From positions 1-15,441 of IMG/VR virus record IMGVR_UViG_3300005805_000069: 15,441 nt of DNA. The stretch is one strand, 5' to 3'. Below are positions 1-15,441 of the stretch, in pieces; position 1 is the stretch's first letter, and each line of letters starts with the position of its first letter. The notes below the pieces were generated by a model, which made no database searches, was not told where the DNA came from, and saw only the letters and a list, made by a program, of their open reading frames with translations. Both the position numbers and the translations under genes were made by a program. Source of the DNA: a virus. Taxonomy: Duplodnaviria > Heunggongvirae > Uroviricota > Caudoviricetes.

Positions 1-3000
1 GAACTAAACGTAGCACTCGTTCCGCTTAATGCGCCACCCAGTGTAATCGTAGTACCATTGTCCTGAATCAAGCTATTGCCTATGGAAGTAGCAGATGTAA
101 ACTTAGGAATGTAATTGGTTGTACCACTTCCAGATATGCCACTAAAGGCGTTTACTAGATAGTTGTAGGCTATTATCTCCACGATGTCTCCTGCCACACA
201 AGCTATAGCCAACACAACGGTTGTTCCGTTGGTAGCTGTGAATTCAGCACCTGTAAGCCTACTACCATTGTAAAACACATCTATCAGTCCTACAGAGTAG
301 GTGACAGAGAATGTTGTCTGTCCACCTGTAGCTGTGAATGTTGTTATTGTCCTAAGGGTGTTGAATGGGGTGTATTCAGATCCATATATATACACCTCAA
401 TTACGTCATTGAGGGCAGCTGGATCTGTTAGCACCACAGTTGTGGTGTTAGATGCTGTAAAGTCTGTAGCGTTGTCTAGCTTTACACCGTTCCTATAGAC
501 ATCAAGCAGTCCTACGGTGTATCCACCAGTTATTGTAAATGTGGTTTGTCCTGCTGTAGCTACAAACCTTTGTAATTCTCTTGAATATAATGTTGCTGTA
601 CCAGAGGTACCAGATGTACCACTACTACCTGCAGATCCGCTAGATCCAGTGCCTCCACTGGTTCCTGAGCTTCCTGATGTACCAGATGTACCAGCACTAC
701 CAGTGCTACCACTTGAACCTGTTGCACCACTAGTACCACTGCTTCCAGATGTACCAGATGAGCCTGATGTTCCAGATGTACCTCCTGTTCCGTCAGTAGC
801 ACTTGTACCACTGGTGCCACTAGATCCACTGCTACCAGCTGTGCCACTAGAGCCTGCTGTACCTGAACTACCAGAGCTGCCAGAGGTTCCGCTTGTGCCA
901 TCTGTACCTGACGTACCAGATGTTCCCCCACTACCATCAGTGCCACTTGTACCTGAGCTACCACTAGAACCAGCTGATCCAGATGTTCCACTAGTGCCAT
1001 CTGTACCATTTATTCCACTGCTACCTGATGTACCACTTGTGCCAGAAGATCCAGCTGTACCACTGCTACCAGATGATCCAGAGCTACCACTGCTACCACT
1101 TGTACCTGTGGTGCCACTCGTACCACTAGTTCCTCCTGAGCCATCAGTACCACTAGTGCCTGAAGAGCCTGAGGTGGCACTTGTACCAGAGGTACCAGAA
1201 GAGCCAGATGTCCCAGACGTACCTGTGGTTCCACTAGTTCCATCTGTACCTGATGTTCCACTTGATCCAGTGAGACCAGATGTTCCAGATGTACCTGTTG
1301 TACCAGAGGTGCCTGTTGTACCTGAGGTTCCAGATGTGCCAGAAGTTCCGTTCACACCACTAGTACCAGAGGTACCAGAAGGAGGGGTGAATGTGGTTTG
1401 TGCGTAGGAATAATTACTTGTTCCTTCTGTATAGAATGTAATGTTTTGATTTCCTCCTCCAGTGTGTTCTGCATATATTTCGCAATAAAGCCTATCTGTA
1501 ACAAGCATTGCTGTTTGAGGCAGGAATAAATCTGTAAAAAATTCTTTTAGAATATTGGTGGTCATCACCTCAGTGTCAAGGTTGGTGGTTCCTAAAAACA
1601 CCACACTTCCACCTGTAGAGTCACATTTGTAAAGATCTACATCCACCTTCATGGTGACGTTAGCATCTATTGAGAAATGCGTCACCCATGCCCAAAGTCC
1701 TGAAGGTAAACTTATTACACCTGGATCATTTGAGTCTGTAGCATATGTAGCAATTAGTGTTCTAGTGTTACCAGCAACACTTGTTACCACTGTTTGTTCT
1801 GCCCCACCTGTAGGGGTGCCAGACCATTGTTTATATGTAGGAGTGCCTATTGCACTGCTAGTATTTACTGATTGGTTTAGGTAGTATACAAGTCCTCCAG
1901 ATATACCGTTAGCACCTGAAGAGCCTGAGCTACCTGCAGTGCCTGATGTTCCAGATGTACCTGCGCTTCCTGATGTGCCACTTGTACCACTGGTACCGCT
2001 TGTTGCACTTGTACCAGATGTACCACTTGTACCTCCAGAGCCGTCTGTTCCACTAGTGCCACTTGTTGCAGATGTTCCTGATGTACCAGCAGTTCCACTA
2101 CTACCTGATGTGCCTGAGGTGCCTCCTGTACCATCAGTGGCAGATGTACCACTAGTACCTGACGTACCGCTAGTGCCTGTTGTTCCACTAGACCCACTTG
2201 TACCTGTTGTTCCTGAAGATCCAGAAGTTGCACTAGTACCACTAGTTCCTGATGTTCCTCCACTACCGTCTGTACCAGAAGATCCTGATGTTCCAGAGGT
2301 GGCAGAAGTACCTGATGTACCGCTGGTTCCTCCTGTACCGTCCGTACCACTGGTTCCTGAAGTACCAGATGAGCCACTCGTAGCAGATGTACCACTTGTA
2401 GCAGACGTACCGCTGGTTCCTGTAGTTCCACTGGATCCAGAGGTAGCTGACGTACCTGATGTACCTGACGTACCTCCAGTGCCATCTGTAGCACTCGTAC
2501 CTGATGTACCACTGGTAGCACTTGTACCACTCGTACCTGTGGTACCAGAAGTACCAGAGGTGGCGCTTGTACCTGAACTTCCAGAGGTTCCACTGGTTGC
2601 ACTTGTTCCACTTGTACCAGAAGTGCCTGATGTACCTCCTGAACCATCTGTTGCACTTGTACCACTGGTGCCACTTGTTCCACTGGTCCCTGATGTACCA
2701 GCTGTTCCAGACGTACCAGAACTACCAGCAAAGCCAGAGAGGAACACATCCTCTATCTTCTCAATGACCACCTGAAGATTGTCATTGGTGTTAATGCCTG
2801 TATAGATTAAATTGGGTCCTTCATAAAAGACACAAGTGGCGTTTAACGTAATAGGGCATGGTTCTGCAGCACAGATGACAGGGCTAGTGATAAATGTTGA
2901 AGGAGTGCCACATTCCTTGTTAAGCAGTTTAGACAAAAAGGAAGATTGGCTAACAGCTGGGCTGTCATCCTCTACATTTGTATATATAGGCAACTCGTCT

Positions 3001-3083
3001 TGACAATTGGATGGCAAGGACTCACCTGAGCTACCAGATGATCCTGCACTTCCATGTTGAAATATTTTAGGAAGTACGTTCAT
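1..3083 (-). CDS. Large virion fibre protein (tail or head fibre) with two collagen-like G-T-S triplet tracts; 3'-partial, more than 1027 aa
   Basis: Absent from the ORF track (no stop inside the window). Translated by hand: ATG at 3083, 8 nt after the stop of the 131-aa gene, with A at -3; no in-frame stop down to base 1. Reads MNVLPKIFQHGSAGSSGSSG...CPITLNATCVFYEGPNLIYTGINTNDNLQVVIEKIEDVFLSGFA, then GTS tract, about 170-aa globular domain, second GTS tract, two ATxGQTTF beta repeats, and SGTTNYIPKFTSATSIGNSLIQDNGT. The open frame is certain; the fibre function is inferred from architecture and context. Confidence 0.9.
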   Translation of the reverse strand, partial: MNVLPKIFQHGSAGSSGSSGESLPSNCQDELPIYTNVEDDSPAVSQSSFLSKLLNKECGTPSTFITSPVICAAEPCPITLNATCVFYEGPNLIYTGINTNDNLQVVIEKIEDVFLSGFAGSSGTSGTAGTSGTSGTSGTSGTSATDGSGGTSGTSGTSGTSATSGTSGSSGTSATSGTSGTTGTSGTSATSGTSGTSATDGTGGTSGTSGTSATSGSSGTTGTSGTSATSGTSATSGSSGTSGTSGTDGTGGTSGTSGTSATSGTSGSSGTDGSGGTSGTSGTSATSGSSGTTGTSGSSGTTGTSGTSGTSGTSATDGTGGTSGTSGSSGTAGTSGTSATSGTSGTDGSGGTSGTSGTSATSGTSGTSGTSGSAGTSGTSGTAGSSGSSGANGISGGLVYYLNQSVNTSSAIGTPTYKQWSGTPTGGAEQTVVTSVAGNTRTLIATYATDSNDPGVISLPSGLWAWVTHFSIDANVTMKVDVDLYKCDSTGGSVVFLGTTNLDTEVMTTNILKEFFTDLFLPQTAMLVTDRLYCEIYAEHTGGGNQNITFYTEGTSNYSYAQTTFTPPSGTSGTSGVNGTSGTSGTSGTTGTSGTTGTSGTSGLTGSSGTSGTDGTSGTTGTSGTSGSSGTSGTSATSGSSGTSGTDGSGGTSGTSGTTGTSGSSGSSGSSGSSGTAGSSGTSGTSGSSGINGTDGTSGTSGSAGSSGSSGTSGTDGSGGTSGTSGTDGTSGTSGSSGSSGTAGSSGTAGSSGSSGTSGTSATDGTGGTSGTSGSSGTSGSSGTSGATGSSGSTGSAGTSGTSGSSGTSGGTGSSGSAGSSGTSGTSGTATLYSRELQRFVATAGQTTFTITGGYTVGLLDVYRNGVKLDNATDFTASNTTTVVLTDPAALNDVIEVYIYGSEYTPFNTLRTITTFTATGGQTTFSVTYSVGLIDVFYNGSRLTGAEFTATNGTTVVLAIACVAGDIVEIIAYNYLVNAFSGISGSGTTNYIPKFTSATSIGNSLIQDNGTTITLGGALSGTSATFS
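165..581 (-). repeat. Two tandem ~63-66 aa beta-rich protein repeats in the fibre
   Basis: Unit 1 (581-384): RELQRFVATAGQTTFTITGGYTVGLLDVYRNGVKLDNATDFTASNTTTVVLTDPAALNDVIEVYIY. Unit 2 (353-165): RTITTFTATGGQTTFSVTYSVGLIDVFYNGSRLTGAEFTATNGTTVVLAIACVAGDIVEIIAY. They align nearly colinearly. Confidence 0.85.
594..1376 (-). repeat. Triplet repeat tract 2: 87 (G/A)-X-Y triplets, mostly GTS/GSS/GTD/GTG
   Basis: 9-nt periodicity; Gly codons in register from 1374 to 600 (774 nt = 86 x 9) without interruption. Only 2 of 87 first positions are Ala. Confidence 0.95.
1377..1898 (-). other. About 170-aa globular, probably beta-sandwich, domain between the two triplet tracts
   Basis: GGLVYYLNQSVNTSSAIGTPTYKQWSGTP...DPGVISLPSGLWAWVTHFSIDANVTMKVDVDLYKCD...DRLYCEIYAEHTGGGNQNITFYTEGTSNYSYAQTTFTPP: alternating hydrophobic/polar strands rich in aromatic residues. 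The fold is inferred. Confidence 0.6.
1899..2726 (-). repeat. Triplet repeat tract 1: 92 (G/A)-X-Y triplets, mostly GTS/ATS with recurring (A/G)TD-G(T/S)G units
   Basis: Register kept from 2724 to 1905 (819 nt = 91 x 9). 13 of 92 first positions are Ala. Six xTD-GxG units. Synonymous codons are heavily varied. Confidence 0.95.
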
Positions 3084-3091
3084 GTTCTAAA

Positions 3092-3487
3092 TTAATGTAC
3101 GATTTTCAATACATCACCTGTACGATACACTTGGCCTGCAAACAGACCAGCAGCTGCAGCAGCAGCATTATCAGCATATTCAGGAGCTCCTGTATATCCT
3201 ACAGAGAGAACAATTCTCCAGTCTAGAGCACCTGTGCCTGTTGTTTGGGCATACAAAAGGTTCTTGGCTCCAGCTGTTCTTACATAAAGCTGACCCAAAT
3301 AAATGGCAGCATTTGTAGGAGCATTGGATCCTGTTACAGGAACCAGATTGTCATTTATCTTCTCTAATGCCACCTCTAGACTATCCAGAGGATTGATGTC
3401 AGCATTAGCTAGATATTCGCCATTATAGAGGATGCAAAGGGCATTCTCAAAAACAGCACAGGTTGGGCAAATTGCAGCAGTACGCAT
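3092..3487 (-). CDS. Small virion structural / short fibre-like protein (131 aa)
   Basis: AT-rich leader with A at -3. N-terminal CxxYxGxxLxxxxINxxDxLxVxxEKIxD module shared with the downstream fibre; middle GSNAPT...GQLYVRT...W; C-terminal YADNAAAAAAGLFAGQVYRTGDVLKIVH, a motif type I associate with phage fibre proteins (recall, not a search result). Confidence 0.8.
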   Translation of the reverse strand: MRTAAICPTCAVFENALCILYNGEYLANADINPLDSLEVALEKINDNLVPVTGSNAPTNAAIYLGQLYVRTAGAKNLLYAQTTGTGALDWRIVLSVGYTGAPEYADNAAAAAAGLFAGQVYRTGDVLKIVH

Positions 3488-3492
3488 GTTAG

Positions 3493-3523
3493 CAAAATTA
3501 GTTGTTATTAATTAATTTTCAAT
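3493..3523 (-). promoter_or_regulatory. Bacteroidota housekeeping-sigma-type promoter (-33 TTG / -7 TAnnTTTG)
   Basis: Minus strand reads ATTG (3523-3520), a 19-nt spacer, TAATTTTG (3500-3493), then CTAAC-ATG. This matches the TTTG-N19-21-TAnnTTTG consensus with one mismatch in -33, in the only sizeable intergenic gap. Confidence 0.65.
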
Positions 3524-3530
3524 GGGTTAT

Positions 3531-3554
3531 AAAAAGTTTTGGCTATAATATAGC
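3531..3554 (-). terminator. Weak terminator or operator candidate: palindrome GCTATA-T-TATAGC followed by a T5 run
   Basis: Perfect 6-bp inverted repeat at 3542-3554, 6 nt after the TAG of the 1562-aa gene; TTTTT lies 6 nt further on. The stem is AT-rich and the spacing is atypical for an intrinsic terminator. Confidence 0.25.
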
Positions 3555-3560
3555 TATGTC

Positions 3561-6500
3561 CTATCTAATTCCGTAGTTAGATTGAACCCTCAAACCAAGG
3601 TCTTTGGCTAGGTCAGGATAGAACATAGGAAGGTAGCCAGCCATCTGGTTTGTGAAGGGGAATGTCTTAAGCCAGTATTTGATCACCTTGATCTCCTCAA
3701 CAGACTCATCATCACCTGTAGCAAGTGCCCAGTTCTCTCTAAAGAAGTTCACTGTACCCTTTCTAAAGTTTTCTACAAGTCCTAGGGATGGGAATATACC
3801 GCTGGATACAAGATTCTGGAAGCTGGTGGGATCGTAGAAATATGTCAACTCATCCTTGAACTTGTCAGCAGCCTTCACCATGAATCTATATCTAGCTTTT
3901 GTAGCTGCATCTTCTTCATCATCAGGCATGTTTGCTTTGAGGGCAGCCACAAGGATGAACATTGTTGTCAGGAATATAACATCGTACATCTGGTTTCTAA
4001 TGTTGCTTCTAACCAGGTCCATGAACTCAGCTTCTGACATATTCAGGGTTTTACCTGTGTCTTTCTCATAGTCAGCCTTTTTCTTTTCAAACAGCTCTCT
4101 CATGAAATCCACACCCCTCTGATTAGCTACAAGGGATCCATATAAATTGTTAAGGCTTCCTATCAGGTCCTCTGAAAATATGCGGAACACCATTCTCATT
4201 CTACCCCACTCATAGGCATCTGAAGCATTGTTATACTTGAGATTACCCATACGTACATCTACCAGACGTGGAATCCAGTTCTTGAATATCATGAACGACT
4301 TACCGTATATAGTGAGGTTGATCTTTCTTAAATCATCTTCAGACAAGTTACCAAGAGCATCCTTTGTAAGTTGTTGCACATTCCTTCTGAGCCTAACAAC
4401 ACTTTCAGATTTTCTGTTTACACCAGGTATAACAAACTCATTATCAACAACTTGTGCCACTTTTAATATTCCTTTCTCCTCAACAAGTCTTTTCACCTCA
4501 TCTTCAAACTTCTGTTCAAACGCTCTTCTGTCTTCCACTGTACCAGCATATTTCTCTGCATACTCAGGTTGAGATCTCAAGAACTCTCTTGCATTCACCA
4601 CCTCTCCATCCTGCACTATGGTGTTCTTAAGGAAGGCATAGAAGTTGGCTGTTTGTACAGCCCAGTCAGACTTTCTCATGAAATACATAAGAGCGTCTTG
4701 TAGGTTCTGCTGGTTTAACTTATTAAGAGACAAGCTGTTAGCCACATCCCTGTTATAGTTTTCTGTCAATGGAAGGAAATAATCCAGAGCACCAATCACT
4801 TTCTTTCTGTCTTCCACGCCAGCAAGTTTACCAACAAACAGCATTGCCTCAGCACTTGCATAGTCTGTCTTGGTAAAATACTTACCAGAGTTGATTACAG
4901 ACTGAGCATTACCACCAAAGAAGTTGGAAGTTGCAGATAGTGCATTCAGTCCTAATGTGGTTATTTGGAATGTATTGTTGAGCTGGTTGATCACCTTGTT
5001 AACACTGATCTGTCTGCCGTCCAAGTTCTTTGGGAATATATTCATACCCAACTTGTCATTTATCTTATCACCCCACTTACCAATGTTGCCTAGAAGCTGG
5101 TCAAAGGTTTCGCTTTGTACAAACTTCTGACCATAGATAATGGATTTCATCATGTCTTCAACAAGCTTAGTGTTCTCATTATTATCTGGAGTGTATTGGA
5201 GTACACCATCTTTGTATTCAGTTCTACCAAACACAGATGTGGCAATAGCCTTTTTGTTTCTTTCTACAGCTACAAGCGCTCTCACCTGATCCTCAATCTC
5301 ACTGAGATATTGATATCTAATAGCAGCCTCATTATATAAAGCCATTGTTCTGAACAGGTCATCACTCACTTCTCCTTCCACCTCTCTTGCAAAGTATTTA
5401 GGAATAACATCTATAGGCTTACCTGTCAAAGGATCAATCTGACCCATTCCTATATCTCCCTCATCAATTGATATGTCTCTAAAGAACTGCTCACCAAGTC
5501 TTACATTTCCTCCCATGACAAGTTTCTCTACAAGACTCTTTCTTACAAACGGAAGGAACACACGAGCCTCAGCTCTACCTATATAACCAAGCTCACGATA
5601 GATTTCATTTCTTTCTTTGATGTAATTATAGAAGTCTAGAGCAGGTTTATTGGCAGGATTGTTCAACTCTCTCCATTCTTTAGACTCCCAGTTCTCACGT
5701 TTAGGATGGAGCTTTACAAAGTCATACAACAACCATCCAGCACTTTCTGTAGTGGATGTGTTATAAAGAAGCTTAGCTTGGTTCTTTTCACGGGTGATTT
5801 CAGCATTGATTTCTGCCTCTGTACCCACCCTATGTTTGTTCTCTATTCTCTCAAACTCTTCTGCTAACTTTTTGCTCAGGAACTCATTGTACTCAGACAC
5901 ATTAATGTTATCTCTAACCCATTGAGAGTCTTTCTCTTCTATCTTCTTCTTAAGGGTGGAATAGAACTCAGGATTGAATTCATCAATCAGTTCGTTCTTA
6001 TTCTTCTTCTTAATGATGTTGAAGTAGTCTTTTTGTGAAAGTCCTTTTGATGCAGCCCATTTGTCATACGCATCCTTCAGAGACTTCAGCCTTTTGCTTT
6101 CTGTTAGTGTGTCATATCCTGCAAGGGCAAAAGCCTTGTTTGCCTTCTTGTACAACACTTCCATAGCTTTGAGCTGTATGGTGGCTGTAGAAGCAAACAG
6201 TCTTGTAATACCTTTTACAATCTTTTCAGGAGACAATAGGCTATCTACCCCTTCACTCTTAGCAATGATTTCAGATGTGTAGTCGTTTAGAATCTCATTC
6301 AGGGATGATTGTATATCTCTAGCGTCATCAGCAGCATCTCTTAAATCGTCTTTAAGTTTCTTATCTTCCTCAGACAACTCTCCAGTGAATAGTCCTCTCA
6401 GGTCTGTGTCAAGATTGACATAAGTGTTAATAGCATCTTGGGCTGTCTGTAGTTCTTCAGCAAAGTTATTTATTTCCTTCTGGCTAAACTGTGAAGGATC

Positions 6501-8249
6501 TTGACCAGCAAACTTACTGTTGTATGTCTCAATAATTTTCTGGATTTGCTTGTTCAATATCTTAGCCTGTCTGAGCAGAGGTTTAAGATTGCCCTTGATT
6601 TGCAATTGCCTAATGGCTGTAAACAACTCATTGAGCTGTTCTGCTTTGCTTTGCTTTTCTGAAGGAAGCACCTTCTTCTCAGAGAACTTCTTATATACAG
6701 CATTGAGCTTTTCAATCAATGCATCTATCTTTCTATTTCCAGTTTTCTCACCTTCTAGTCCTACAGGAAGCAAATAGTCGTCTGTAATGTTTTTAATATT
6801 TACATCTCCTATCTTAACGCTCAGCAGTTGTGGCAGAACGTTAAGCTTTGCGTTACCCTGAGAGTAAAGCGCCTGTATAGGAATCATCCTGGTTTGCTTG
6901 AACTTCTCTGGCTTAATACCATAGACGTTCTGTAGGATGAGCTTATACTGTTCCATCTGTTGTCTCCAGGCATTTATCTTATACCAAGGAACGTCTGTAT
7001 ACTTGTTTATATTCAAGTCCATAAACTTCCAGTCAAGCACACTGGTTTCACCAGTTGGCGTAATGGCAAGGAAGTCTATTGTACCAGCTAATCCACGCTT
7101 AGGATCATACACAGTTATCTCAGACATAAACCTTGTGCCCTGAGGGAAAGACTTAAGCCTAGCTTCCATGTTTTCCTTCAGAGAGTTGTACATGTCTTTG
7201 TTAGACGGGTTGAGCTGAGATACGTATGTAGAGTCATCCAGTAGAGTGTCTCTTAGGTTACCGTTCTCATCTACAAACACCTTGAATATATTCTCTATAT
7301 CAGCATGTCCAGCTGTACCCTTCTCACGCTTCAAATCATCTACAGCTTTGGCATATTCACTCTTGGTGAGGTCTTTGTCATTAAATCTTCTTTGATACCA
7401 GTCTTTTACAATGTCTGTAACCCTTCTGCTCACTTTCTTGCCATCAATATAATAGCCATCATCCTTCTTCTCAATTCTTCCAGACACTTCTTTAATCTTA
7501 TCAAACAGGGCTTCCTGAGGATTCTTTGAGAAGAATATAGCATCTTGCTCTTCCCTGATGTCCTCAGCTGTACCAATCTTATTACCAGACATAATGTCTA
7601 TGGCAAGTTGGTCAAATCCACTCTTAGCAAACAGGTTCTTAATAGCCCTTATAATCTGTTGCCACCAGCTCTCCACATTAGCTATCTTCTGTAGAGTTTC
7701 CGTGCTACCCTCGTTCTTTTCTATAATCACTTGTGTCAACACCTTGGCAATAGCTTCTTCCTTCAGTTTGATAACATTAGGCTTACCATCTATCTGGTAG
7801 TTTGGATCTTTGCTATATGTGGCAAATACGTCATTCAGGATGCGATAGTTGTTAATCTCACCCAGGAGCTTTCTGTATAAGGCAGGATCAGTTTGCTTGA
7901 TGATGGATACAGCAAAGTGCATTGCTTCTTCAGGAAGTGCTTCAGCCTCTTTACCTTCTACCACCTGTATCAGTTTCTGCATAACAAGCGCAGCACCCTT
8001 ATCATCATACTTCACACCATTCACCTCAATCTGCTTTAACACCTTGATGTCTACACCAATACGCTTGATGAAGTCTTTGATAAGCGCAATGGTCTTAGGA
8101 GATGCCACAGGAGCATCAGGGGTGGGTATAATTGCATCCTCAGGAACATTACCGTCATATTTATCCCACAGGTAGTAGGCAAGATCCTCTCCTTTAGAAG
8201 CCACTAGTTCTTTCCAAGAGTCAAGATTTGTATTTGGACAAGTTGCCAT
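3561..8249 (-). CDS. Large virion cargo (ejection) protein, 1562 aa: degenerate zincin-like domain + PD-(D/E)xK nuclease + long helical region
   Basis: ATG overlaps the RNAP stop (TAATG). Motifs: LPEEAMHF...KEEAIAK (zincin-like, aa 107-111); RRVTDIV...KGTAGH...SE...AGTIDFL...SVLDWKF...QQMEQY (nuclease). The remainder looks helical. Cargo role is inferred from its position beside a crAss-like virion RNAP. Confidence 0.85.
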   Translation of the reverse strand: MATCPNTNLDSWKELVASKGEDLAYYLWDKYDGNVPEDAIIPTPDAPVASPKTIALIKDFIKRIGVDIKVLKQIEVNGVKYDDKGAALVMQKLIQVVEGKEAEALPEEAMHFAVSIIKQTDPALYRKLLGEINNYRILNDVFATYSKDPNYQIDGKPNVIKLKEEAIAKVLTQVIIEKNEGSTETLQKIANVESWWQQIIRAIKNLFAKSGFDQLAIDIMSGNKIGTAEDIREEQDAIFFSKNPQEALFDKIKEVSGRIEKKDDGYYIDGKKVSRRVTDIVKDWYQRRFNDKDLTKSEYAKAVDDLKREKGTAGHADIENIFKVFVDENGNLRDTLLDDSTYVSQLNPSNKDMYNSLKENMEARLKSFPQGTRFMSEITVYDPKRGLAGTIDFLAITPTGETSVLDWKFMDLNINKYTDVPWYKINAWRQQMEQYKLILQNVYGIKPEKFKQTRMIPIQALYSQGNAKLNVLPQLLSVKIGDVNIKNITDDYLLPVGLEGEKTGNRKIDALIEKLNAVYKKFSEKKVLPSEKQSKAEQLNELFTAIRQLQIKGNLKPLLRQAKILNKQIQKIIETYNSKFAGQDPSQFSQKEINNFAEELQTAQDAINTYVNLDTDLRGLFTGELSEEDKKLKDDLRDAADDARDIQSSLNEILNDYTSEIIAKSEGVDSLLSPEKIVKGITRLFASTATIQLKAMEVLYKKANKAFALAGYDTLTESKRLKSLKDAYDKWAASKGLSQKDYFNIIKKKNKNELIDEFNPEFYSTLKKKIEEKDSQWVRDNINVSEYNEFLSKKLAEEFERIENKHRVGTEAEINAEITREKNQAKLLYNTSTTESAGWLLYDFVKLHPKRENWESKEWRELNNPANKPALDFYNYIKERNEIYRELGYIGRAEARVFLPFVRKSLVEKLVMGGNVRLGEQFFRDISIDEGDIGMGQIDPLTGKPIDVIPKYFAREVEGEVSDDLFRTMALYNEAAIRYQYLSEIEDQVRALVAVERNKKAIATSVFGRTEYKDGVLQYTPDNNENTKLVEDMMKSIIYGQKFVQSETFDQLLGNIGKWGDKINDKLGMNIFPKNLDGRQISVNKVINQLNNTFQITTLGLNALSATSNFFGGNAQSVINSGKYFTKTDYASAEAMLFVGKLAGVEDRKKVIGALDYFLPLTENYNRDVANSLSLNKLNQQNLQDALMYFMRKSDWAVQTANFYAFLKNTIVQDGEVVNAREFLRSQPEYAEKYAGTVEDRRAFEQKFEDEVKRLVEEKGILKVAQVVDNEFVIPGVNRKSESVVRLRRNVQQLTKDALGNLSEDDLRKINLTIYGKSFMIFKNWIPRLVDVRMGNLKYNNASDAYEWGRMRMVFRIFSEDLIGSLNNLYGSLVANQRGVDFMRELFEKKKADYEKDTGKTLNMSEAEFMDLVRSNIRNQMYDVIFLTTMFILVAALKANMPDDEEDAATKARYRFMVKAADKFKDELTYFYDPTSFQNLVSSGIFPSLGLVENFRKGTVNFFRENWALATGDDESVEEIKVIKYWLKTFPFTNQMAGYLPMFYPDLAKDLGLRVQSNYGIR
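6900..7440 (-). other. PD-(D/E)xK (RecB/Cas4-like) nuclease domain
   Basis: GTAGH (H315, 7305-7307), E377 (7119-7121), GTID (D392, 7074-7076), DWK (D406/K408, 7026-7034), QMEQY (Q431-Y435, 6945-6959). Order and spacing fit the RecB-family motif set. No Cas4 Fe-S cysteines. Confidence 0.85.
7620..8060 (-). other. Zincin-like (metallopeptidase-fold) domain with EExxH in place of HExxH
   Basis: KGAALVMQKLIQVVEGKEAEALPEEAMHF (motif at 7917-7931), downstream EEAIAK (7743-7760), and the amphipathic helix WWQQIIRAIKNLF. Confidence 0.6.
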
Positions 8250-11200
8250 TAACAGATTGCTTTTAATATGTTACCAATTTCAGCAGGTGTATATCCCATT
8301 TTCTCTAACATCTCAGCATTTACATCTGCAGAGGAATATTTAACACCATCTTTTAGTTCAATTGTATTATCTTGTGAAGGTACAATTTCTTCTTCAGCCA
8401 CAACTTTAGCACCAAAGAACTTTATCAAATTAGCATCACTAATTTCGTTATCCACTTTCACTGTGCCATTGTTTATAACAGAAGGTTTGCTCTCCAGATA
8501 GTATTCAGAAGCTAGCTGACCGTCACCATACAGATTAACAAGTTTGTATATATGTTCTCCTTTAGCTGTTACAAGAGGTTCACCGTTTGCATATTTCACC
8601 TTTTGATAACCAAACACATCCTTCAGAGACAAATCACCTTGGGCTTTTTGTCTAGCAAACATGGCACGTGTTACAGTTTGACCAGTTGTCATGTCAATCG
8701 TCTCACCAGTTTTCTTGTCTGTTACAACACGAGGTATCTTTACAAAGTCATATTTTACTTCAGCAGAATTGTATATCTCACTGAGTAACAACACTTTACG
8801 ATCTATAGATTGTACACCAAAGTATTCAATGTTAGGGAACAGAGGTGAAAAGTATTGATATATCTCATTACCAGAAGGATCTTCTCCTATAGCCAGTTCA
8901 GCAGCTGCAAAGAACTTAGGTTGTACAGAAGGTACAATTGCATCATCCTTCCAGTTGTTTCTGTAGAACGCACCTTTACCAAAACTCTTAATCTCTTCTG
9001 TGGATGTCAGAGGATCAATAACAGGCTTAATCATTACAGACAAATCCTCAACAGGTATGATGTTTCTAATGGATATAGCTGATTGGTATGTACCCTGGAT
9101 TAGAGACAGTTTAACAAGACCATTATATAAGTCTGGTTCTACCAACTTGAGCTCCCTCATCATGTCTGTATACATGTCTGTATCAAATGCATCCTTCAGA
9201 TTAGCTCTAAGTCTTACGCTTTTAGCTCCACCGATTCTGTCAGAACTTACCACCTGTAGCTCGTTTAGAAGCTTCATCTCAGGGTGTCTTTTCTTAGCCT
9301 GAGCCAGCTGGTCTGCTACAGAATTGTTTGATACAACAAGAGCTTCTATTTCTGTATTCAAAGGACTCTGTGTCTGTATAACGTAGTCAATGAACGATGT
9401 CTTCACCTTAGCAGCTATTCTGTTAAAGTCTTCTGCACCAAGGAACTCGTTCTCTAGGAATGGCTTAATGACATCATTTGTGATGATGGTGAAGTCATCC
9501 TTCTCAGTCTTGATGATCTCTCCCAAGGATGACATAGCACTGTCAATAAACTTAGCCTGGTTTCCTATGAAAGAAGAATCTAATATCTTATCTACAGAGG
9601 AGAATATATTCTTATCTCTAGCTGCTGATGTTCTAGCCTGCTTTCTGCTAAACTCATCACCACTCCTAAACTTAGTAGTGTCATAGTTGGAAGCCTGTGT
9701 AAGCTTGAAGTTGTATTCAGCCATTTTAGCATACTTCAAAAACTCATTGAGTATTGCTTCTTGTTCAGCGTTATCCTCACCAGTAGGCATTTGTTGTTTG
9801 TTCTCATAATATACTCTGATGTTATCTTTGAGTTTATTAACATCAAACGTACGTCCAAATGATTCCCCAGGGTCTACTGTATATGCAAAACCACCTTTAA
9901 CATGATCTATGTTCTTTTTACTAAACAGTCCTTTTGCACCAATGCTGTTTAGGTAACTCAGGTATTCTCTAATGATAGGCTGGTTCATAAACCAGATTGT
10001 ATTCTCACCAGCACCTATTCTCTCAAGGAACATGAACACACCTACAACAGAATTAGAACCAATAATCTTCATGATGTAAGGGTCTTTGGCTACATCTACA
10101 AATGATGTGGCATATCCAGAAAGTCTGTCAGAAATGTATTGTGTATTATCTGCAGTCATCTTTCCAGAGATGGATATGTATTCTTTGCCATCAACAACCA
10201 CACTGTTATGTGGAAGGTACACTTTGCCGTCTCCCAACATTTTCTTATCAAAATCAGACAATGCTTCAAATCTATCTGGGTCAATATACACCTCAGCTTT
10301 CTGTGTAAGAGAATGACCTGTGATGTTTACAGCAGAAATACCCACCCACTTCTTAGCAGTGACAAATGCATTCCTAAGAGGAGTCATGTAGTTGCGGTTG
10401 AGTAGTCTTCCTGGTATGGTGGTCTCATCTTCCTTCCTAAGAACATCAAGTTCTGTGGCAAGTTTGGAAAGCCCTGCATCATCTACAGGAGAAACCAGTC
10501 TGTCGAAGTTCTCAGGCAGAGTGATCATGTCCTCTAGGGAAATGTAATACTCGTTCTCCAAAGAACGTCTGTACATATCATCTACAAACCTGTTCTTCAG
10601 TTTAGCCTGTAAGTCAACATCTCCCAGTCTCTCAAGTTCCTTCATTATCTCATCTTCAAACTTAGAAGAGTCTTGTACATCCTCTAGAAGAACATCAAGA
10701 AGGTTTGAGTATTTGTCTAATAGGTTGTTTGAATCCTCTAGTCCAAGAGAAAGGATTTGTGCAGCCTCAAGAAGTTCAGCCTTGTTTATCTTCTGTTTCT
10801 CAAGCACTTCGTCAAACACCTTACCAAAGAAAGCTTTTGTAGCTTCTTCAGATCCTTGGTATTTAACCAGCTTAATGTCACCATTCTTGTCTATGTATGT
10901 AGACTTCAGATAGGTGTTCATTTTATCTATATCAAAGTCAGATCCAGCTTTTGCTGTCACCTCAGAAGGAACAACAATGGTGTCACCCATAGATTGTGGC
11001 AGGAATCCTTTCACTCTAAACACCTCAATAGAGGACATAGACTGTGTAGGGATACGGAAACCAATACCTCTGAGGATAGACTTACCCTCTGGGCTGGTGT
11101 TTAGATATTTAAGAATAGCCTCATCGTTAGGAAACTTCTTCTTACTAAACTTACCTCTAAACCAATGAGGAAGCAACACTTCCATGTAAGGATCTTCCTT

Positions 11201-14200
11201 GGTGTAGAACTTAAGCTCTGGGTTTGGTTTGCCAGCCTTTCTGTTTTGTTTCTCCCATCCTGTTACAGGAACCTGCACCTTAGGAGCACCGTTCATCTTA
11301 GGACTAACAAGAGACTTGTTAACCATAGAGAACAGAATATCTTTTATTTGCTTGTATGCAGGAGATGCTTCGAAAGGAATAATAAACTGACCATTCTCGT
11401 CAAGCTTGATTGTGTCCTTAGCATTCTCAGCCATCTCTCTTCTGAGCAGTTCATACTCAAGAGTTTCCTGTACAGCTTTAGGATTTACAAGACGGAAACC
11501 ATCACCTAAGTCCTCAAGGCCCAGTCTGTTAAGAAGGGTTTTGTATCCATTCTCATGGAGGTCATTGAGAGCTTTGAGGTTACGCTCGTAAGCTTTCTTA
11601 GCTTGTTGTGTGCCCTTACCATCACTAAATAGGTCAAGGCTAGAAAGTTTTGTCAACTGAGAACCACGGGTTTGATCCTTAGGATTCTCATAGGCATTCT
11701 CCACTTGTATACCATATGCCTTCCAAGGCACTTTTACAATGCCATCAAAAGGTTTCTCATTGATAGAACCATCAGCGTTATACATGTTGTACAACTCTGT
11801 AGCTCCCACCTTTCTGCCACTCTCAAACACAGCATATCCAATGTTCTCTTTCCACATCTTGATGTAGAGTTTCTCAAGATTTCTGCCCTCAACATCTTTG
11901 TAATACAAAGGCATTTGAGAGAACTTATCTAGCACGTTGTCAATCTTTGTCTCAGCAGCTTTAACACCAGACACAATAGGTTTGAGAACGTCTGTTACAA
12001 ATGCAGGCTCAGGTTTGCTAATCAGCTCACTGTCAGCCTTTTGTAATCTATCACTTGTGTATACGTATTCACCTTTAGCAGCCAGCTTGTTTCTTGTGTA
12101 AGCCATTTGCCATTGATGCCAAGGTTCTGAAACTTCATCAATCCACTGACCATTCTTCAGCTTCACTTCTCTGTATGTGGTGTCCATAATAAACGAAGCA
12201 GCATCTGCCTCATTGATCTTAGGATAGAGTTCACTAGACAGATTGATGTCAGCCAGTGTAACAGTGTTTGTATAAGACTTATGTAAATGATAACCAGGAT
12301 CGTTAGGGGTGAGTTTTACACCGCTAGCTGTATTGTAGTCATCATTAAGGAAGCTGTTATACTCAGGGCTGTCAAATGTAATTCTGCGTGGAGACAGGAA
12401 GCTTTTGATACGTTTGGTCTCATCCAGCTTACCATTCTTTATGGCAAACTCATATGGGTCACCAAAGATGAGTTTGTGCAGTTCTATGTTATTAATGATA
12501 TAGTTTGCGTTTACAAATGTCAATAGGTTCTTAACGTCTTGCTCAGACATATTAAACTTATTGATATTAAACTTATTGATATCACTTGCTGTTGTAAACT
12601 TGTCCTGTAGTCCTGGGTAGCTATACTGACCTTTTTTAATCAGGGATATCTGGTTATTGTCTATGAGAAGTTTTGTTGTTTCTTCCACTGTGGTGTTAAT
12701 GAAGTCAGCCACAGCAGCGTTAATATCATCAATGTTCTTATCAATATATTCGTTGATCTGGTCCTGTGTAGAACCATTAGCAATCATTTTCTCTATTGCG
12801 TTAACATCCTTTTCTTTCAGGATTTCCTTGAAGAAGCGAAGTTCTTTTGCCTTGTCTCCAACATTTTTAAGATTCTCTCTGTTCTCGTAGTCAAGAGCAA
12901 GAGCCACCTCATCCTGCAGATATCCTTTAAATACACTGTAAATCTTATTCCAGCCTCTTCCACCAGCTATGTCAACAAATGGCATGTGGTTACCAAGGTT
13001 TATCTTCCACTCTGTAGATCCGTCAGCAGGAACCAGGATATAGTAGTCACCGTTCAGATTCTCATTGATCTCTTGTGTAAAACGATCTCCAAGTGTAAGT
13101 TTACTGGTAGTAACACCCTTGTCACTATCCACTGTCTTCCTACCCTGTATGTATCCAATCTTAATTTTCTTATATCTTTCTCCTTCTGCGTTATAGAAGT
13201 TCTCACCATCCTTAAGCGTGATGCTGTTTGTAGAGAATACATCATTGAGTTCTGGTCTGAGCTGTTTCAGCTCTTCAACTGTCTTAACACTGTTAAACTC
13301 GTTCTCCATTATGGAAGGAACGTTGTTATCAGCATAAGACTGAATACGTTGATTCTCAACACCAAAGTAGGTGGAGTCTTGAGAAGGATTGGTTACATTG
13401 ATGTATAGGTTGGCCAGGTCAGACAGCTGAGGATTGATTCCAAGTGTCTTGCCTGTGATTGTTCCCACCTCAGTGCTCTTCTGTATGTAGGTGTATATTC
13501 CTGCAACAGCTTTACCAAATTCATCCTTCTGTGTAGTCTTCAAAGAAGTGTATGCGCTAAGAGGGAAACTTACACCAAGGTCTGCAAGGAAGTTAACCAT
13601 TGGTTGTGGTTCTTTAGGAACTGAACCAGGCAACTTACTTTTGTCCACCTCAAAGGTTTGCTTCTGTTTGTTCTTCTTTATAATGGATGCAGGATCATCA
13701 GCCAGAGCTTTCATGTTCTCAAACCACTCACTTTGTAAAAGTTTACTAGCAGTGAACTGATTAGCAGGAGCTGTGTACACACTGTTACCATCAAAGTATT
13801 GGATGTCAGCATTAGGCTTTTGCTTGGTGAATGTCTGGTAGAAGTTGATGAACAGTCTCCAGTCTTCTCTGCTAGAAAGTTTGAAGTCCATGTTGTCCAA
13901 GTCACCACCTATACGCTGGAAGAAACGAACAAATGTACCATCATTTTTAGCAAGATTGACAAGCTTGTCCTTTATCAATTTAAGATTGGTTGTGTTAGAA
14001 ACCTTATCCAACACTGTATTAAACACTCTACCAAAACTTGCTAGCTTCAGACCTTTCACACTAGATGTGTCACGCTCAGGGAGTTTTAGAGAGGATGCAG
14101 TTTGCTGATTTGTAGGCTTCACCTCAGGTAGGGTGGCTGCTACAAGTTTAACTGGGAAAGGAGAGGTCTTCTTCCAGTCTGTAGAGAATGGTTCTGGAGC

Positions 14201-15441
14201 ATAGTCTCTATTAGAAACATTCTCATCATTTATATCCACTGTGTCTTCATCATTGAAGCTAATACCCAGTGTACGAAGCTTTTCTTTTGTCCTGATAACC
14301 AATTGGTTAAAACGTTCTTCTCCAAGCTTCTGATATTTTTTCTCAGCATCACTTGCATAAGCTTCTTTAATTCTATCAAAGATTTCTTTACCAGTGATTT
14401 TCTTAATATCGTAGAGAGACTTCTTGCTGTCTCCAAATATATAGTTAGCTACACGAGCTGTCATATCTTGGACAAACTCATAAGCCTGTGTTTCTGTAAG
14501 TCCAGGAATACGCATGTATTCAGGAGTGGAGGCAGCAATAGAAGCAGGAAGTGTAAGGTCTTTAAACTTACCAGCCTCAATAGCTTTGAACAGCTGCTCC
14601 TTCATAGAAGGTTTCTGTACAAAGGATTTGAAGAAGTCTATAATACTTCTAAAGAATCTAACAACTCTTTCTCCTAGATTGCGTGCAGGAAGTTTACCCA
14701 CTCTAAATGCACCAAAGTCATCAGCTATTCTTTCCTTAGCCTGTTGGTCTGTAGCATCAGCATAGTTTATCTTCTTACCAGAAGCTCTGTCTGTAAACTG
14801 ACCAGCTTTAGCTTTGAACTCATCCAGAATTAATTGTCTTTGCTCAGGAGTGAGGAACCCTTTCCATATACCCTCAAATACCTCGTGGTATGGAGTGGTG
14901 CCAGGAGCACCCTTATAGAACTTAGCTACATTGTTCTCAAACACACCCCACGCTTTTTCGTTATCATATGTATTTACTAGATTGTCCAACACCTCGTATG
15001 GAATAGTAGGTACTTTATCTGCAGCCCAGATTTTAAACAGTTCTATCTGTGCATCTGTAAGCGTTTCAACACCAGCCTCTTTTGCACCCACTCTCATGTA
15101 GTCATCCTGAGGAGCACCTGTTCCTTGTGGATTATATTTCTCTGTTGTAGGTTTAGCTCCTTCTAAAGCAGCTAGTTCTGCATCATATTTAGCATTAATA
15201 GGTTTAGCAATCTCATCAAATTCTTTTAAATAAATCTCTTCTTCAGTTGATTCTTCTGGAGATATAGATACAAAAGCACTTTCATTTGGTAACTTTGATT
15301 GCTTTTCTGATCTTAGCTTTGGTTCTTCAGAAGGATCAAAATCAAATAAATTTTTTCTTCTCCATTTTTCCCATGCTTCTTGATGTTGTTTTTCAGCATC
15401 AGCTGATGTATTTTCTTCACTATTAATAAAGTAAGTAACTT
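8249..15441 (-). CDS. crAss-like single-subunit (fused beta/beta-prime double-psi barrel) virion DNA-dependent RNA polymerase; 5'-partial, at least 2396 aa
   Basis: Catalytic DFDID at 10925-10939 in GDTIVVPSEVTAKAGSDFDIDK, the same DFDID motif as phi14:2 gp66, preceded by GFRIPTQ (R at 11054-11056). Candidate beta-like Lys motifs LDKFSQMPL (K 11924-11926) and FESGRKVG (K 11810-11812). Later VGISAVNITGHS and SFVDVAKDP. The frame stays open 114 codons upstream of ATG 15097 to the window edge. Confidence 0.92.
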   Translation of the reverse strand, partial: VTYFINSEENTSADAEKQHQEAWEKWRRKNLFDFDPSEEPKLRSEKQSKLPNESAFVSISPEESTEEEIYLKEFDEIAKPINAKYDAELAALEGAKPTTEKYNPQGTGAPQDDYMRVGAKEAGVETLTDAQIELFKIWAADKVPTIPYEVLDNLVNTYDNEKAWGVFENNVAKFYKGAPGTTPYHEVFEGIWKGFLTPEQRQLILDEFKAKAGQFTDRASGKKINYADATDQQAKERIADDFGAFRVGKLPARNLGERVVRFFRSIIDFFKSFVQKPSMKEQLFKAIEAGKFKDLTLPASIAASTPEYMRIPGLTETQAYEFVQDMTARVANYIFGDSKKSLYDIKKITGKEIFDRIKEAYASDAEKKYQKLGEERFNQLVIRTKEKLRTLGISFNDEDTVDINDENVSNRDYAPEPFSTDWKKTSPFPVKLVAATLPEVKPTNQQTASSLKLPERDTSSVKGLKLASFGRVFNTVLDKVSNTTNLKLIKDKLVNLAKNDGTFVRFFQRIGGDLDNMDFKLSSREDWRLFINFYQTFTKQKPNADIQYFDGNSVYTAPANQFTASKLLQSEWFENMKALADDPASIIKKNKQKQTFEVDKSKLPGSVPKEPQPMVNFLADLGVSFPLSAYTSLKTTQKDEFGKAVAGIYTYIQKSTEVGTITGKTLGINPQLSDLANLYINVTNPSQDSTYFGVENQRIQSYADNNVPSIMENEFNSVKTVEELKQLRPELNDVFSTNSITLKDGENFYNAEGERYKKIKIGYIQGRKTVDSDKGVTTSKLTLGDRFTQEINENLNGDYYILVPADGSTEWKINLGNHMPFVDIAGGRGWNKIYSVFKGYLQDEVALALDYENRENLKNVGDKAKELRFFKEILKEKDVNAIEKMIANGSTQDQINEYIDKNIDDINAAVADFINTTVEETTKLLIDNNQISLIKKGQYSYPGLQDKFTTASDINKFNINKFNMSEQDVKNLLTFVNANYIINNIELHKLIFGDPYEFAIKNGKLDETKRIKSFLSPRRITFDSPEYNSFLNDDYNTASGVKLTPNDPGYHLHKSYTNTVTLADINLSSELYPKINEADAASFIMDTTYREVKLKNGQWIDEVSEPWHQWQMAYTRNKLAAKGEYVYTSDRLQKADSELISKPEPAFVTDVLKPIVSGVKAAETKIDNVLDKFSQMPLYYKDVEGRNLEKLYIKMWKENIGYAVFESGRKVGATELYNMYNADGSINEKPFDGIVKVPWKAYGIQVENAYENPKDQTRGSQLTKLSSLDLFSDGKGTQQAKKAYERNLKALNDLHENGYKTLLNRLGLEDLGDGFRLVNPKAVQETLEYELLRREMAENAKDTIKLDENGQFIIPFEASPAYKQIKDILFSMVNKSLVSPKMNGAPKVQVPVTGWEKQNRKAGKPNPELKFYTKEDPYMEVLLPHWFRGKFSKKKFPNDEAILKYLNTSPEGKSILRGIGFRIPTQSMSSIEVFRVKGFLPQSMGDTIVVPSEVTAKAGSDFDIDKMNTYLKSTYIDKNGDIKLVKYQGSEEATKAFFGKVFDEVLEKQKINKAELLEAAQILSLGLEDSNNLLDKYSNLLDVLLEDVQDSSKFEDEIMKELERLGDVDLQAKLKNRFVDDMYRRSLENEYYISLEDMITLPENFDRLVSPVDDAGLSKLATELDVLRKEDETTIPGRLLNRNYMTPLRNAFVTAKKWVGISAVNITGHSLTQKAEVYIDPDRFEALSDFDKKMLGDGKVYLPHNSVVVDGKEYISISGKMTADNTQYISDRLSGYATSFVDVAKDPYIMKIIGSNSVVGVFMFLERIGAGENTIWFMNQPIIREYLSYLNSIGAKGLFSKKNIDHVKGGFAYTVDPGESFGRTFDVNKLKDNIRVYYENKQQMPTGEDNAEQEAILNEFLKYAKMAEYNFKLTQASNYDTTKFRSGDEFSRKQARTSAARDKNIFSSVDKILDSSFIGNQAKFIDSAMSSLGEIIKTEKDDFTIITNDVIKPFLENEFLGAEDFNRIAAKVKTSFIDYVIQTQSPLNTEIEALVVSNNSVADQLAQAKKRHPEMKLLNELQVVSSDRIGGAKSVRLRANLKDAFDTDMYTDMMRELKLVEPDLYNGLVKLSLIQGTYQSAISIRNIIPVEDLSVMIKPVIDPLTSTEEIKSFGKGAFYRNNWKDDAIVPSVQPKFFAAAELAIGEDPSGNEIYQYFSPLFPNIEYFGVQSIDRKVLLLSEIYNSAEVKYDFVKIPRVVTDKKTGETIDMTTGQTVTRAMFARQKAQGDLSLKDVFGYQKVKYANGEPLVTAKGEHIYKLVNLYGDGQLASEYYLESKPSVINNGTVKVDNEISDANLIKFFGAKVVAEEEIVPSQDNTIELKDGVKYSSADVNAEMLEKMGYTPAEIGNILKAIC
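12549..12582. repeat. Perfect 15-bp tandem duplication inside the RNAP gene (ATATTAAACTTATTG x2.3)
   Basis: Units at 12549-12563 and 12564-12578 are identical, plus ATAT; encodes DINKFNINKFNM. Confidence 0.95.
14600..14970 (-). other. Zincin-like (metallopeptidase-fold) domain in the RNAP N-terminal region with HExxE in place of HExxH
   Basis: AWGVFENNVAKFYKGAPGTTPYHEVFE (motif at 14873-14887), downstream KERIADDF (14714-14737), and the amphipathic helix VVRFFRSIIDFFKSF. Confidence 0.65.

Follow-up and report, generated by a model that had tools for sequence, protein, structure and literature searches.

Lone cysteines on the facing termini of split RNA polymerase cargo proteins suggest a head-to-tail tie in crAss-like phages

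The virion RNA polymerase (RNAP) module of the Crassvirales is best described for Cellulophaga phage phi14:2 and for crAss001. It has three parts: A (phi14:2 gp078, crAss001 Gp47), B or the RNAP core (gp077, Gp50) and C (gp076, Gp49), the phi14:2 series also being numbered g067-g066-g065, with g066 represented by PDB 6VR4. The three module proteins were detected in phi14:2 virions and were noted to be fused in some phages, with proteolysis proposed for the fusions (10.1101/2020.03.07.982082). In crAss001, Gp47, Gp49 and Gp50 are cargo, the virion proteins having been identified by mass spectrometry (PMC10172136), and the crAss001 structure paper considers ejection order to be probably set by packing and mutual interactions, with no mechanism given. 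Podovirus-like phages have to pass megadaltons of protein down a narrow tail, and both the manner and the sequence of this delivery are still unsettled. Here we describe the RNAP module within a stretch of 15,441 nucleotides (the window), which represents bases 1-15441 of the 79,441-bp viral genome record IMGVR_UViG_3300005805_000069 (69% complete). In this module the RNAP and the partner protein encoded next to it each retain a single cysteine, and the two lie on the termini that face one another.

The module of the window phage was found to resemble those of phi14:2 and crAss001 in its homologous proteins, its DFDxD motif, its gene order beside tail and cargo genes and its rule of cysteine placement. 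Unlike in those phages, A and B form one protein of 3988 amino acids (aa), which leaves B|C as the sole split junction. N4-like phages (N4 gp50, DEV gp71-gp73) also show a near absence of cysteine in their ejection proteins, a feature that was attributed to passage through the periplasm (PMC11445570). As in the window phage, where ejection is probable, a giant virion RNAP is ejected and cysteine is suppressed. By contrast, the N4-like RNAP is a single polypeptide of ~3400-3500 aa with essentially no cysteine and no terminal pair, and thus represents a case of 'no split, no Cys'. The N4-like enzyme is a T7-like single-subunit polymerase and is unrelated to the two-barrel RNAP of crAss-like phages.

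All genes of the window are on the minus strand. The features that make up the junction are listed below, with the basis of each assignment in brackets (ORF, open reading frame).

8249..15441, minus strand: virion RNA polymerase gene, 3' two thirds, parts A and B fused (ORF, match to PDB 6VR4, A/B alignments)
8252..8254, minus strand: TGT codon of Cys3988, last residue and sole cysteine of the RNAP (translation)
8247..8251, minus strand: TAATG stop/start overlap of the RNAP and partner genes (TAA shares one base with ATG)
8238..8240, minus strand: TGT codon of Cys4, sole cysteine of the partner (translation)
3561..8249, minus strand: gene of the 1562-aa partner (part C of the module), homologous to crAss001 Gp49 (tblastn, blastp)

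The RNAP ends in ..K-A-I-C-stop and the partner starts with M-A-T-C-P-N, such that the two cysteine codons are 14 nt apart across the TAATG overlap. A first-pass annotation of the window had reported these as the only cysteines of the two proteins, and translation confirmed this. What that annotation took for a 114-codon extension of the RNAP proved to be part of a much longer ORF, since the complete gene, at 8249-20215 of the genome record, specifies a 3988-aa product that is identical to P0001; the extension is free of cysteine, as had been stated. The 2396 aa encoded inside the window and the full-length protein have the same single cysteine, the last residue. The absence of cysteine from the RNAP N-terminus, which the earlier annotation had not seen, strengthens the pattern.

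The two cysteines stand out against a cargo block that is otherwise devoid of this residue. Five consecutive genes (3561-28489) encode 8274 aa with 2 cysteines, both at the RNAP/partner junction. The other ORFs of the genome have 1.31% cysteine (1-4% in the neighbouring structural genes), a rate at which ~108 cysteines would be expected in the block (Poisson P(<=2) ~6e-44). Random placement of one cysteine among the final 5 residues of 3988 and of another among the initial 5 of 1562 was estimated to have a probability of ~4e-6; the first-pass annotation had likewise judged the terminal, facing positions unlikely to arise by chance. In-frame TGT/TGC triplets number 1 per gene, compared to 46-156 in each other frame of the RNAP and partner genes. 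As these triplets are common in the two other frames, the absence of cysteine reflects in-frame selection and not base composition. The three large proteins encoded directly upstream of the RNAP gene (20221-28489, minus strand; 875, 1067 and 782 aa) have zero cysteines and are probably other cargo or ejection proteins that lie outside the cysteine-tied chain proposed below. A cysteine frequency far below that of the proteome, as seen here, is a trait of cysteine-suppressed phage ejection proteins.

The paired cysteines are deeply conserved. Within the clade of the window phage, a cysteine was found 0-5 residues from the C-terminus in 120/120 of the top-ranking RNAP homologues (identity 45-100% across the final 497 aa), at the end of tails of unrelated classes (..AIC, ..SCG, ..ECY, ..CVPF, ..PCGQ, ..KQC, ..FTC) and in proteins with a total of 1-6 cysteines per ~4000 aa. 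Exactly one cysteine, at residue 3-5, was present in 118/120 partner homologues, the heads of which fall into many classes; both exceptions are truncated gene calls, and the start of one further protein was called too early. At the locus level, 80 IMG/VR loci were examined, and both cysteines were detected in 76/76 loci that show both genes and in 67/67 of the distinct junctions to which these were reduced (28 junction/tail sequence classes). In these 67 junctions, the head cysteine was residue 3 in 36, residue 4 in 29 and residue 5 in 2, and the tail cysteine was 0-4 residues before the end. Spacing between the two genes ranged from -4 to +24 nt, the TAATG overlap was not conserved, and both TGT and TGC were used as cysteine codons. 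Non-terminal cysteines amounted to 44 in 114,727 aa for the RNAP part and 1 in 110,586 aa for the partner. The first-pass annotation had suggested a search for a terminal cysteine co-conserved with an N-terminal CPN motif; the cysteines are indeed universal, but CPN marks only one of the many head classes. Many RNAP homologues (P0022-P0119) have a second cysteine ~940-1290 residues before the C-terminus that the window protein lacks.

A wider sample of partners was obtained by an exhaustive phmmer search of 1.84 billion representatives (50% clustering), which returned 716 relatives; the best 150 were inspected, and 120 of these appear full-length. Among these 120, a cysteine was located within the first 8 residues in 111 and at residue 9-10 in 2, while 3 were start-site miscalls that fit the rule once corrected. 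The remaining 4 have zero cysteines, and all four are fusions. For separate partners among the best 150 of the 716, a cysteine within approximately the first 10 residues was thus found in 116/116 after the three start corrections. Starts miscalled by 14-32 codons were noted for crAss002 gp_33 (L010 11053-11151), P0131, P0338, P0340 and in locus L101 (5953-6000), and the corrected starts give a cysteine-bearing N-terminus (MAIWGVDC in L101, M-x-C in the other four). The terminal-cysteine rule can therefore be used to mend miscalled starts (those of crAss002 gp_33, P0131, P0338 and P0340, and also P0335), and it flags cargo proteins in metagenomic crAss genomes.

Beyond these clade junctions, the same rule was found in a set of 19 reference crAss-like genomes, which included phi14:2, crAss001 and 17 more: Steigviridae (cr111_1, cr108_1, cr116_1 and IAS virus), Suoliviridae (cr10_1, cr55_1 and the stop-recoded cr7_1), Intestiviridae (cr271_1, cr8_1, Rudgehvirus, crAss002, cr107_1, cr11_1, ctbg_1 and ctcc615), Flavobacterium phage Fpv1, and L099, a relative from within the window clade in which A and B are split. 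At every visible split A|B|C junction of these genomes, both facing termini have a cysteine (within ~10 residues of the end; head side only in the stretch of ctcc615 examined), and no cysteine occurs on an outer terminus. The A protein of phi14:2 carries a single cysteine (the last residue), B carries two (residue 3 and the penultimate residue) and C carries one (residue 3). crAss001 shows the same arrangement, even with gene A apart from the others and on the opposite strand. Gene A is likewise on the opposite strand in cr116_1 and IAS virus, and because the rule is kept in all three phages the signal must reside at the protein level. Cysteine number follows 2 x the number of split junctions, with two in the window phage and four in phi14:2.

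The rule was also found to be independent of the DNA that separates the parts. In L099 (51% identical to the window RNAP in B), the only cysteine of A is 5 residues from the end (1807 of 1812), B has Cys6 and a last-residue cysteine, and C begins with MGLC; four small genes (102, 148, 209 and 355 aa; 5552-8013) are inserted between the split A and B, with the cysteines kept. No Pfam matches were found for these four small proteins. In L101, the RNAP ends in ..PCQL and both cysteines are kept though two genes separate the RNAP (B) from the partner (C).

Where parts are fused, the cysteines are lost. The window RNAP is itself an A+B fusion, in that residues 94-742 of P0001 align to crAss001 Gp47 (A) and 2556-3468 to phi14:2 gp077 (B); the A/B seam maps to approximately residue 1889, where there is no cysteine. 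The giant proteins of Intestiviridae are B+C fusions, as exemplified by Rudgehvirus, in which 765-1635 align to B and 3472-4066 to C. The B+C seams of this family are free of cysteine, and of the four cysteines of the Rudgehvirus protein (residues 3, 158, 1673 and 1802) none is near the seam expected from the alignment. A fully fused A+B+C relative of 5544 aa has zero cysteines. In this protein, ~104 aa that occur only in split forms (the tail linker with a 38-aa tail module, and a 36-aa head module with its linker) are replaced by a linker of ~22 aa. Fused versions, which the first-pass annotation had proposed to look for, thus exist and lack cysteine at the window A+B seam, at the Intestiviridae B+C seams and throughout the A+B+C protein. 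Partner fusions surfaced only in the exhaustive representative search; a search for partners among proteins of 2735-5000 aa recovered no B+C fusion, only C-terminally extended partners, all with the head cysteine. A further type, A+C (P0325; also P0364), joins the N-terminal 1300 aa of part A directly to part C. At the P0325 locus (L102 10001-19171), four consecutive proteins totalling 4976 aa have zero cysteines, and no RNAP core was found within the 29-kb L102 locus.

The terminal segments specific to split forms were modelled with AlphaFold2 (AF2), from which the following features were assigned.

8252..8365, minus strand: RNAP C-terminal 38-aa mini-domain on a disordered linker, ending in cysteine; proposed 'tail' docking module (AF2)
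8142..8249, minus strand: partner N-terminal 36-aa module with a cysteine-bearing flexible tip; proposed 'head' docking module (AF2)

For the tail, the last 40 aa were predicted with confidence scores (pLDDT) of 81-90 compared to <50 for the preceding 40 aa, and the predicted fold has two short strands and two helices, with the cysteine directly after the last helix. Comparison of this model to the PDB by Foldseek gave nothing at E <= 0.001. For the head, residues 1-5, which include Cys4, were of low confidence and are presumably flexible; a helical hairpin (residues 9-19 and 21-30) followed with block-mean pLDDT of 66-71, and residues 31-50 were without regular structure, as expected for a disordered linker. 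Of the first 36 residues of the head, 17 are invariant across 19 sequences. Both modules appear portable: the tail module recurs after unrelated preceding sequence, and the head module is found joined to differing downstream bodies.

Counted by eye, the pairing of tail and head classes is consistent (for instance, 11/11 for the class of the window phage). Acidic tails and basic heads predominate, and the charges show a modest negative correlation (rho -0.44 to -0.49; p 0.008-0.02; 28 classes, not phylogeny-corrected). When the last 60 aa of the RNAP and the first 60 aa of the partner were submitted to complex prediction (P0246 being left out of the alignment), a score of 0.32 was obtained compared to 0.02 for the best control. 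The runs had at least 84% contact agreement, and partner pLDDT was at least 61. The mark used for such predictions was reached by 58/80 solved complexes and 2/110 mismatched pairs, but at a score no higher than 0.60 by just 7 of the 80 complexes and by both passing mismatches. Modelling of the facing termini, as the first-pass annotation had advised, thus lends weak support to docking. Matched terminal modules on flexible linkers order the giant polypeptides of polyketide and non-ribosomal peptide synthases, and these docking domains are gone when the polypeptides are fused. The proposed tail and head modules may work like them, with docking in the phage case weakly supported by the model; the synthase domains differ in being non-covalent and without a conserved cysteine, and there is no homology.

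Taken together, the comparative evidence supports the tail-to-head link that the first-pass annotation had envisaged. We suggest, with a probability of roughly 0.6 as judged from sequence patterns, that a head-to-tail tie, most likely a disulfide, joins the separate cargo proteins into a threadable pseudo-polyprotein. Selection has stripped these cargo proteins of cysteine, sparing a single one at every terminus that faces a neighbour in the module. In the proposed mechanism, the short RNAP tail module would dock, within the virion, on the short head module of the partner, and the exposed facing thiols would then bond, most likely as a disulfide. The separate proteins would thereby behave as a polyprotein made after translation, one linear, unbranched N-to-C chain. 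Only a cross-link placed at the very ends would still allow an unfolded chain to thread through the tail; such a tie could fix a 1:1 stoichiometry and the order of delivery, if the proteins are threaded as one chain, and thiol reductants of the host cytoplasm could open the link. A disulfide is favoured by the presence of a lone cysteine per terminus with no other conserved ligand, by a cysteine count that follows 2 x the split junctions, and by the disulfides seen in crAss001 particles (PMC10172136).

The crAss001 disulfides were described in the gp57 dimer and in tail hub and ring proteins, that is, in the tail and portal vertex only (PMC10172136). They show that such bonds form in crassvirus particles, but they join folded subunits side by side and not ejected proteins end to end. 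A closer functional parallel comes from two-chain AB toxins such as the clostridial neurotoxins and diphtheria toxin. These have one interchain disulfide; one chain is translocated unfolded via a narrow channel, and cytosolic reduction releases it. The proposed tie would work in a like manner, with no homology between the systems. The toxin chains arise by nicking of one precursor, where the disulfide closes an internal loop, whereas the proposed tie would join separate products end to end.

At its fullest, the scheme would have crass-like phages stitch their RNAP cargo head to tail via matched docking modules and single disulfides into a pseudo-polyprotein of ~0.6 MDa, which is threaded in one register and freed, perhaps activated, by host reductants, with splitting plus a cysteine clasp being interchangeable with fusion; we regard the odds for this extended version as about even. 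The rule is without exception in the 19 reference genomes and the 67 clade junctions, and from it comes the hypothesis that the RNAP module is one covalently tied thread. If true, this would explain the free splitting and fusing of cargo genes, the purging of cysteine from these genes, and how the polymerase might stay inactive until it reaches a reducing cytoplasm. Both phi14:2 and crAss001 are cultured phages in which the hypothesis is testable, and the crAss001 atlas includes reduced (R) and untreated (NR) virion samples, subjected to LC-MS/MS, that can be re-mined (PMC10172136). The crAss RNAP cargo is already known; the literature suggests that a terminal-cysteine tie is undescribed. The words 'cysteine' and 'disulfide' have 0 occurrences in the phi14:2 preprint (10.1101/2020.03.07.982082), neither that preprint nor the crAss001 atlas (PMC10172136) mentions terminal cysteines or a link among the three proteins, and full-text literature searches, in which the phi14:2 work was covered as a preprint, found no description of the idea.

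Several observations weigh against a disulfide tie. We infer the bond itself from sequence. The phages assemble in a reducing cytoplasm, and many crassviruses inhabit the anoxic gut, which leaves the site and time of oxidation unexplained. No thioredoxin, glutaredoxin or Erv/ALR oxidase was detected in the 69%-complete record, which is weak evidence as the Erv control matched nothing. The score for the tail-head complex is weak, and co-variation of tail and head classes could stem from DNA adjacency alone. Purging of cysteine is incomplete in some lineages, with 13 cysteines per protein in cr7_1 and 15 in the giant protein of cr271_1. In L099, the 355-aa product encoded just ahead of B has its only cysteine 2 residues from the C-terminus; this makes the cysteine count odd and raises the question of whether this protein is a fourth member of the chain. 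Finally, the cysteine-free A+C fusions without a nearby RNAP core show that organisation of the module is possible with no tie at all.

If a metal ion (Zn, Fe or Cu) bridged the facing cysteines instead, the clasp could form in the reducing cytoplasm, open on loss of the metal and so avoid the problem of oxidation. Thiolates are common metal ligands, and the exactly four terminal cysteines in the three proteins of phi14:2 and crAss001 match the number of a tetrahedral site. We consider a metal bridge unlikely, as there is one cysteine per terminus with no CxxC, and histidine is found among the final 10 residues of 0/28 tail classes and among the first 12 of 2/28 head classes. The window clade, moreover, has only two cysteines, such that a Cys4 site would need two chains together, and the count tracks 2 x the split junctions. 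A zinc hook or clasp of the type found in Rad50 and CD4-Lck, with CxxC or CxC on each chain, was rejected in view of the single cysteine per terminus and the tails without nearby histidine.

Alternatively, the cysteines may not be bonded to one another; each may fix its protein to some other part of the virion, be it the portal, the capsid interior, a tail cargo protein or a DNA end, or may act as a packaging signal. The many inter-subunit disulfides of crAss001 structural proteins, and the lone cysteine that also ends the extra small protein of L099, are compatible with this reading. It appears improbable nonetheless, for it leaves unexplained why cysteines are on facing termini only and never on outer termini in the 19 genomes, and why both cysteines and both terminal modules are lost jointly on fusion.

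Even less credence is given to a role other than linkage, such as sensing of arrival in the cytoplasm by redox state, autoprocessing, or intein-like ligation to a peptide bond. A single conserved cysteine is often a nucleophile or redox switch, and degenerate zincin-like motifs were found by an HExxH scan in the module of relatives, so that a cysteine switch is imaginable. However, the two window proteins have no HExxH and match no Pfam domain, hence no Hint/intein domain; the head cysteine is at residue 3-5 and not +1, which precludes an S-to-N shift; and pairing and loss on fusion point to a function at the junction. A split intein with protein trans-splicing was rejected on the same grounds, the tail cysteine being 0-4 residues from the end and the modules, one a helical hairpin and the other a strand-helix fold, being ~36-38 aa long as compared to intein halves of ~100 and 35 aa. 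An origin of the pattern at the level of nucleotides, through translational coupling or RNA structure where the genes meet, or as a scar of an ancestral fusion, with no meaning for the proteins, is suggested at first sight by the 14-nt spacing around TAATG in the window, and the scar was offered by the first-pass annotation, but this reading can be dismissed: spacing and codons vary, the cysteines are kept with two genes between B and C or four between A and B and with gene A on the other strand, and fusions carry neither the cysteines nor the terminal modules.

The identities of both proteins were examined by homology. Two further features lie within them.

10925..10939, minus strand: DFDID catalytic motif of the two-barrel RNAP (sequence motif; the DFDxD metal-binding motif is present)
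6900..7478, minus strand: nuclease-like region of the partner, residues 258-450 (phrog_298 'exonuclease', E 1.6e-8)

The RNAP matched PDB 6VR4 (Cellulophaga phage phi14:2 gp66) by phmmer at E 1.5e-23 (query 1139-1844, chain 1012-1688) and phi14:2 gp077 by blastp at E 7e-30. On the evidence of 6VR4 homology and the DFDID motif, the upstream protein is confirmed as a crAss-type virion two-barrel RNAP. The partner, the gene of which directly adjoins that of the RNAP, was 28% identical to the crAss001 Gp49 region by tblastn (residues 57-222, E 3e-4), and matched crAss001 Gp49 and g065 by blastp at E 9e-8 and 5e-5, respectively; by these alignments it has weak homology to crAss001 Gp49, which is a virion protein termed 'RNAP-associated'. 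Pfam matched no domain of any kind in either protein, and PHROGs named neither giant save for the phrog_298 match in the partner. Searches of a phage collection with the junction DNA and proteins gave no close relative, only the catalytic region and the weak Gp49 matches. By analogy to their orthologues, which were detected in virions by mass spectrometry, and from the location in the structural block, the RNAP and partner are probably packed in the virion and injected. The RNAP frame was found to be interrupted exactly at the DFD catalytic motif in cr108_1 (L005 16095-16386) and cr116_1 (L097 16693-17534); the cr116_1 insert holds a 215-aa ORF, and the interruptions look like an intron or mobile insertion.

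The partner gene is followed by a 131-aa ORF (window 3092-3487, minus strand) with cysteines at residues 7, 10 and 18 and a CPTC motif. It matched no redox family and was dropped as a candidate oxidoreductase; the proteins that resemble it are hypothetical viral products with hints of a tail or baseplate link. In several gut crAss genomes (L003, L005, L008, L009 and L098), a small thioredoxin is encoded near the module on the other strand. The tail fibre gene (window 3-3083, minus strand), which runs off the end of the window, encodes collagen triple-helix repeats (PF01391, E 2.4e-53) and, in contrast to the cargo genes, 8 cysteines.

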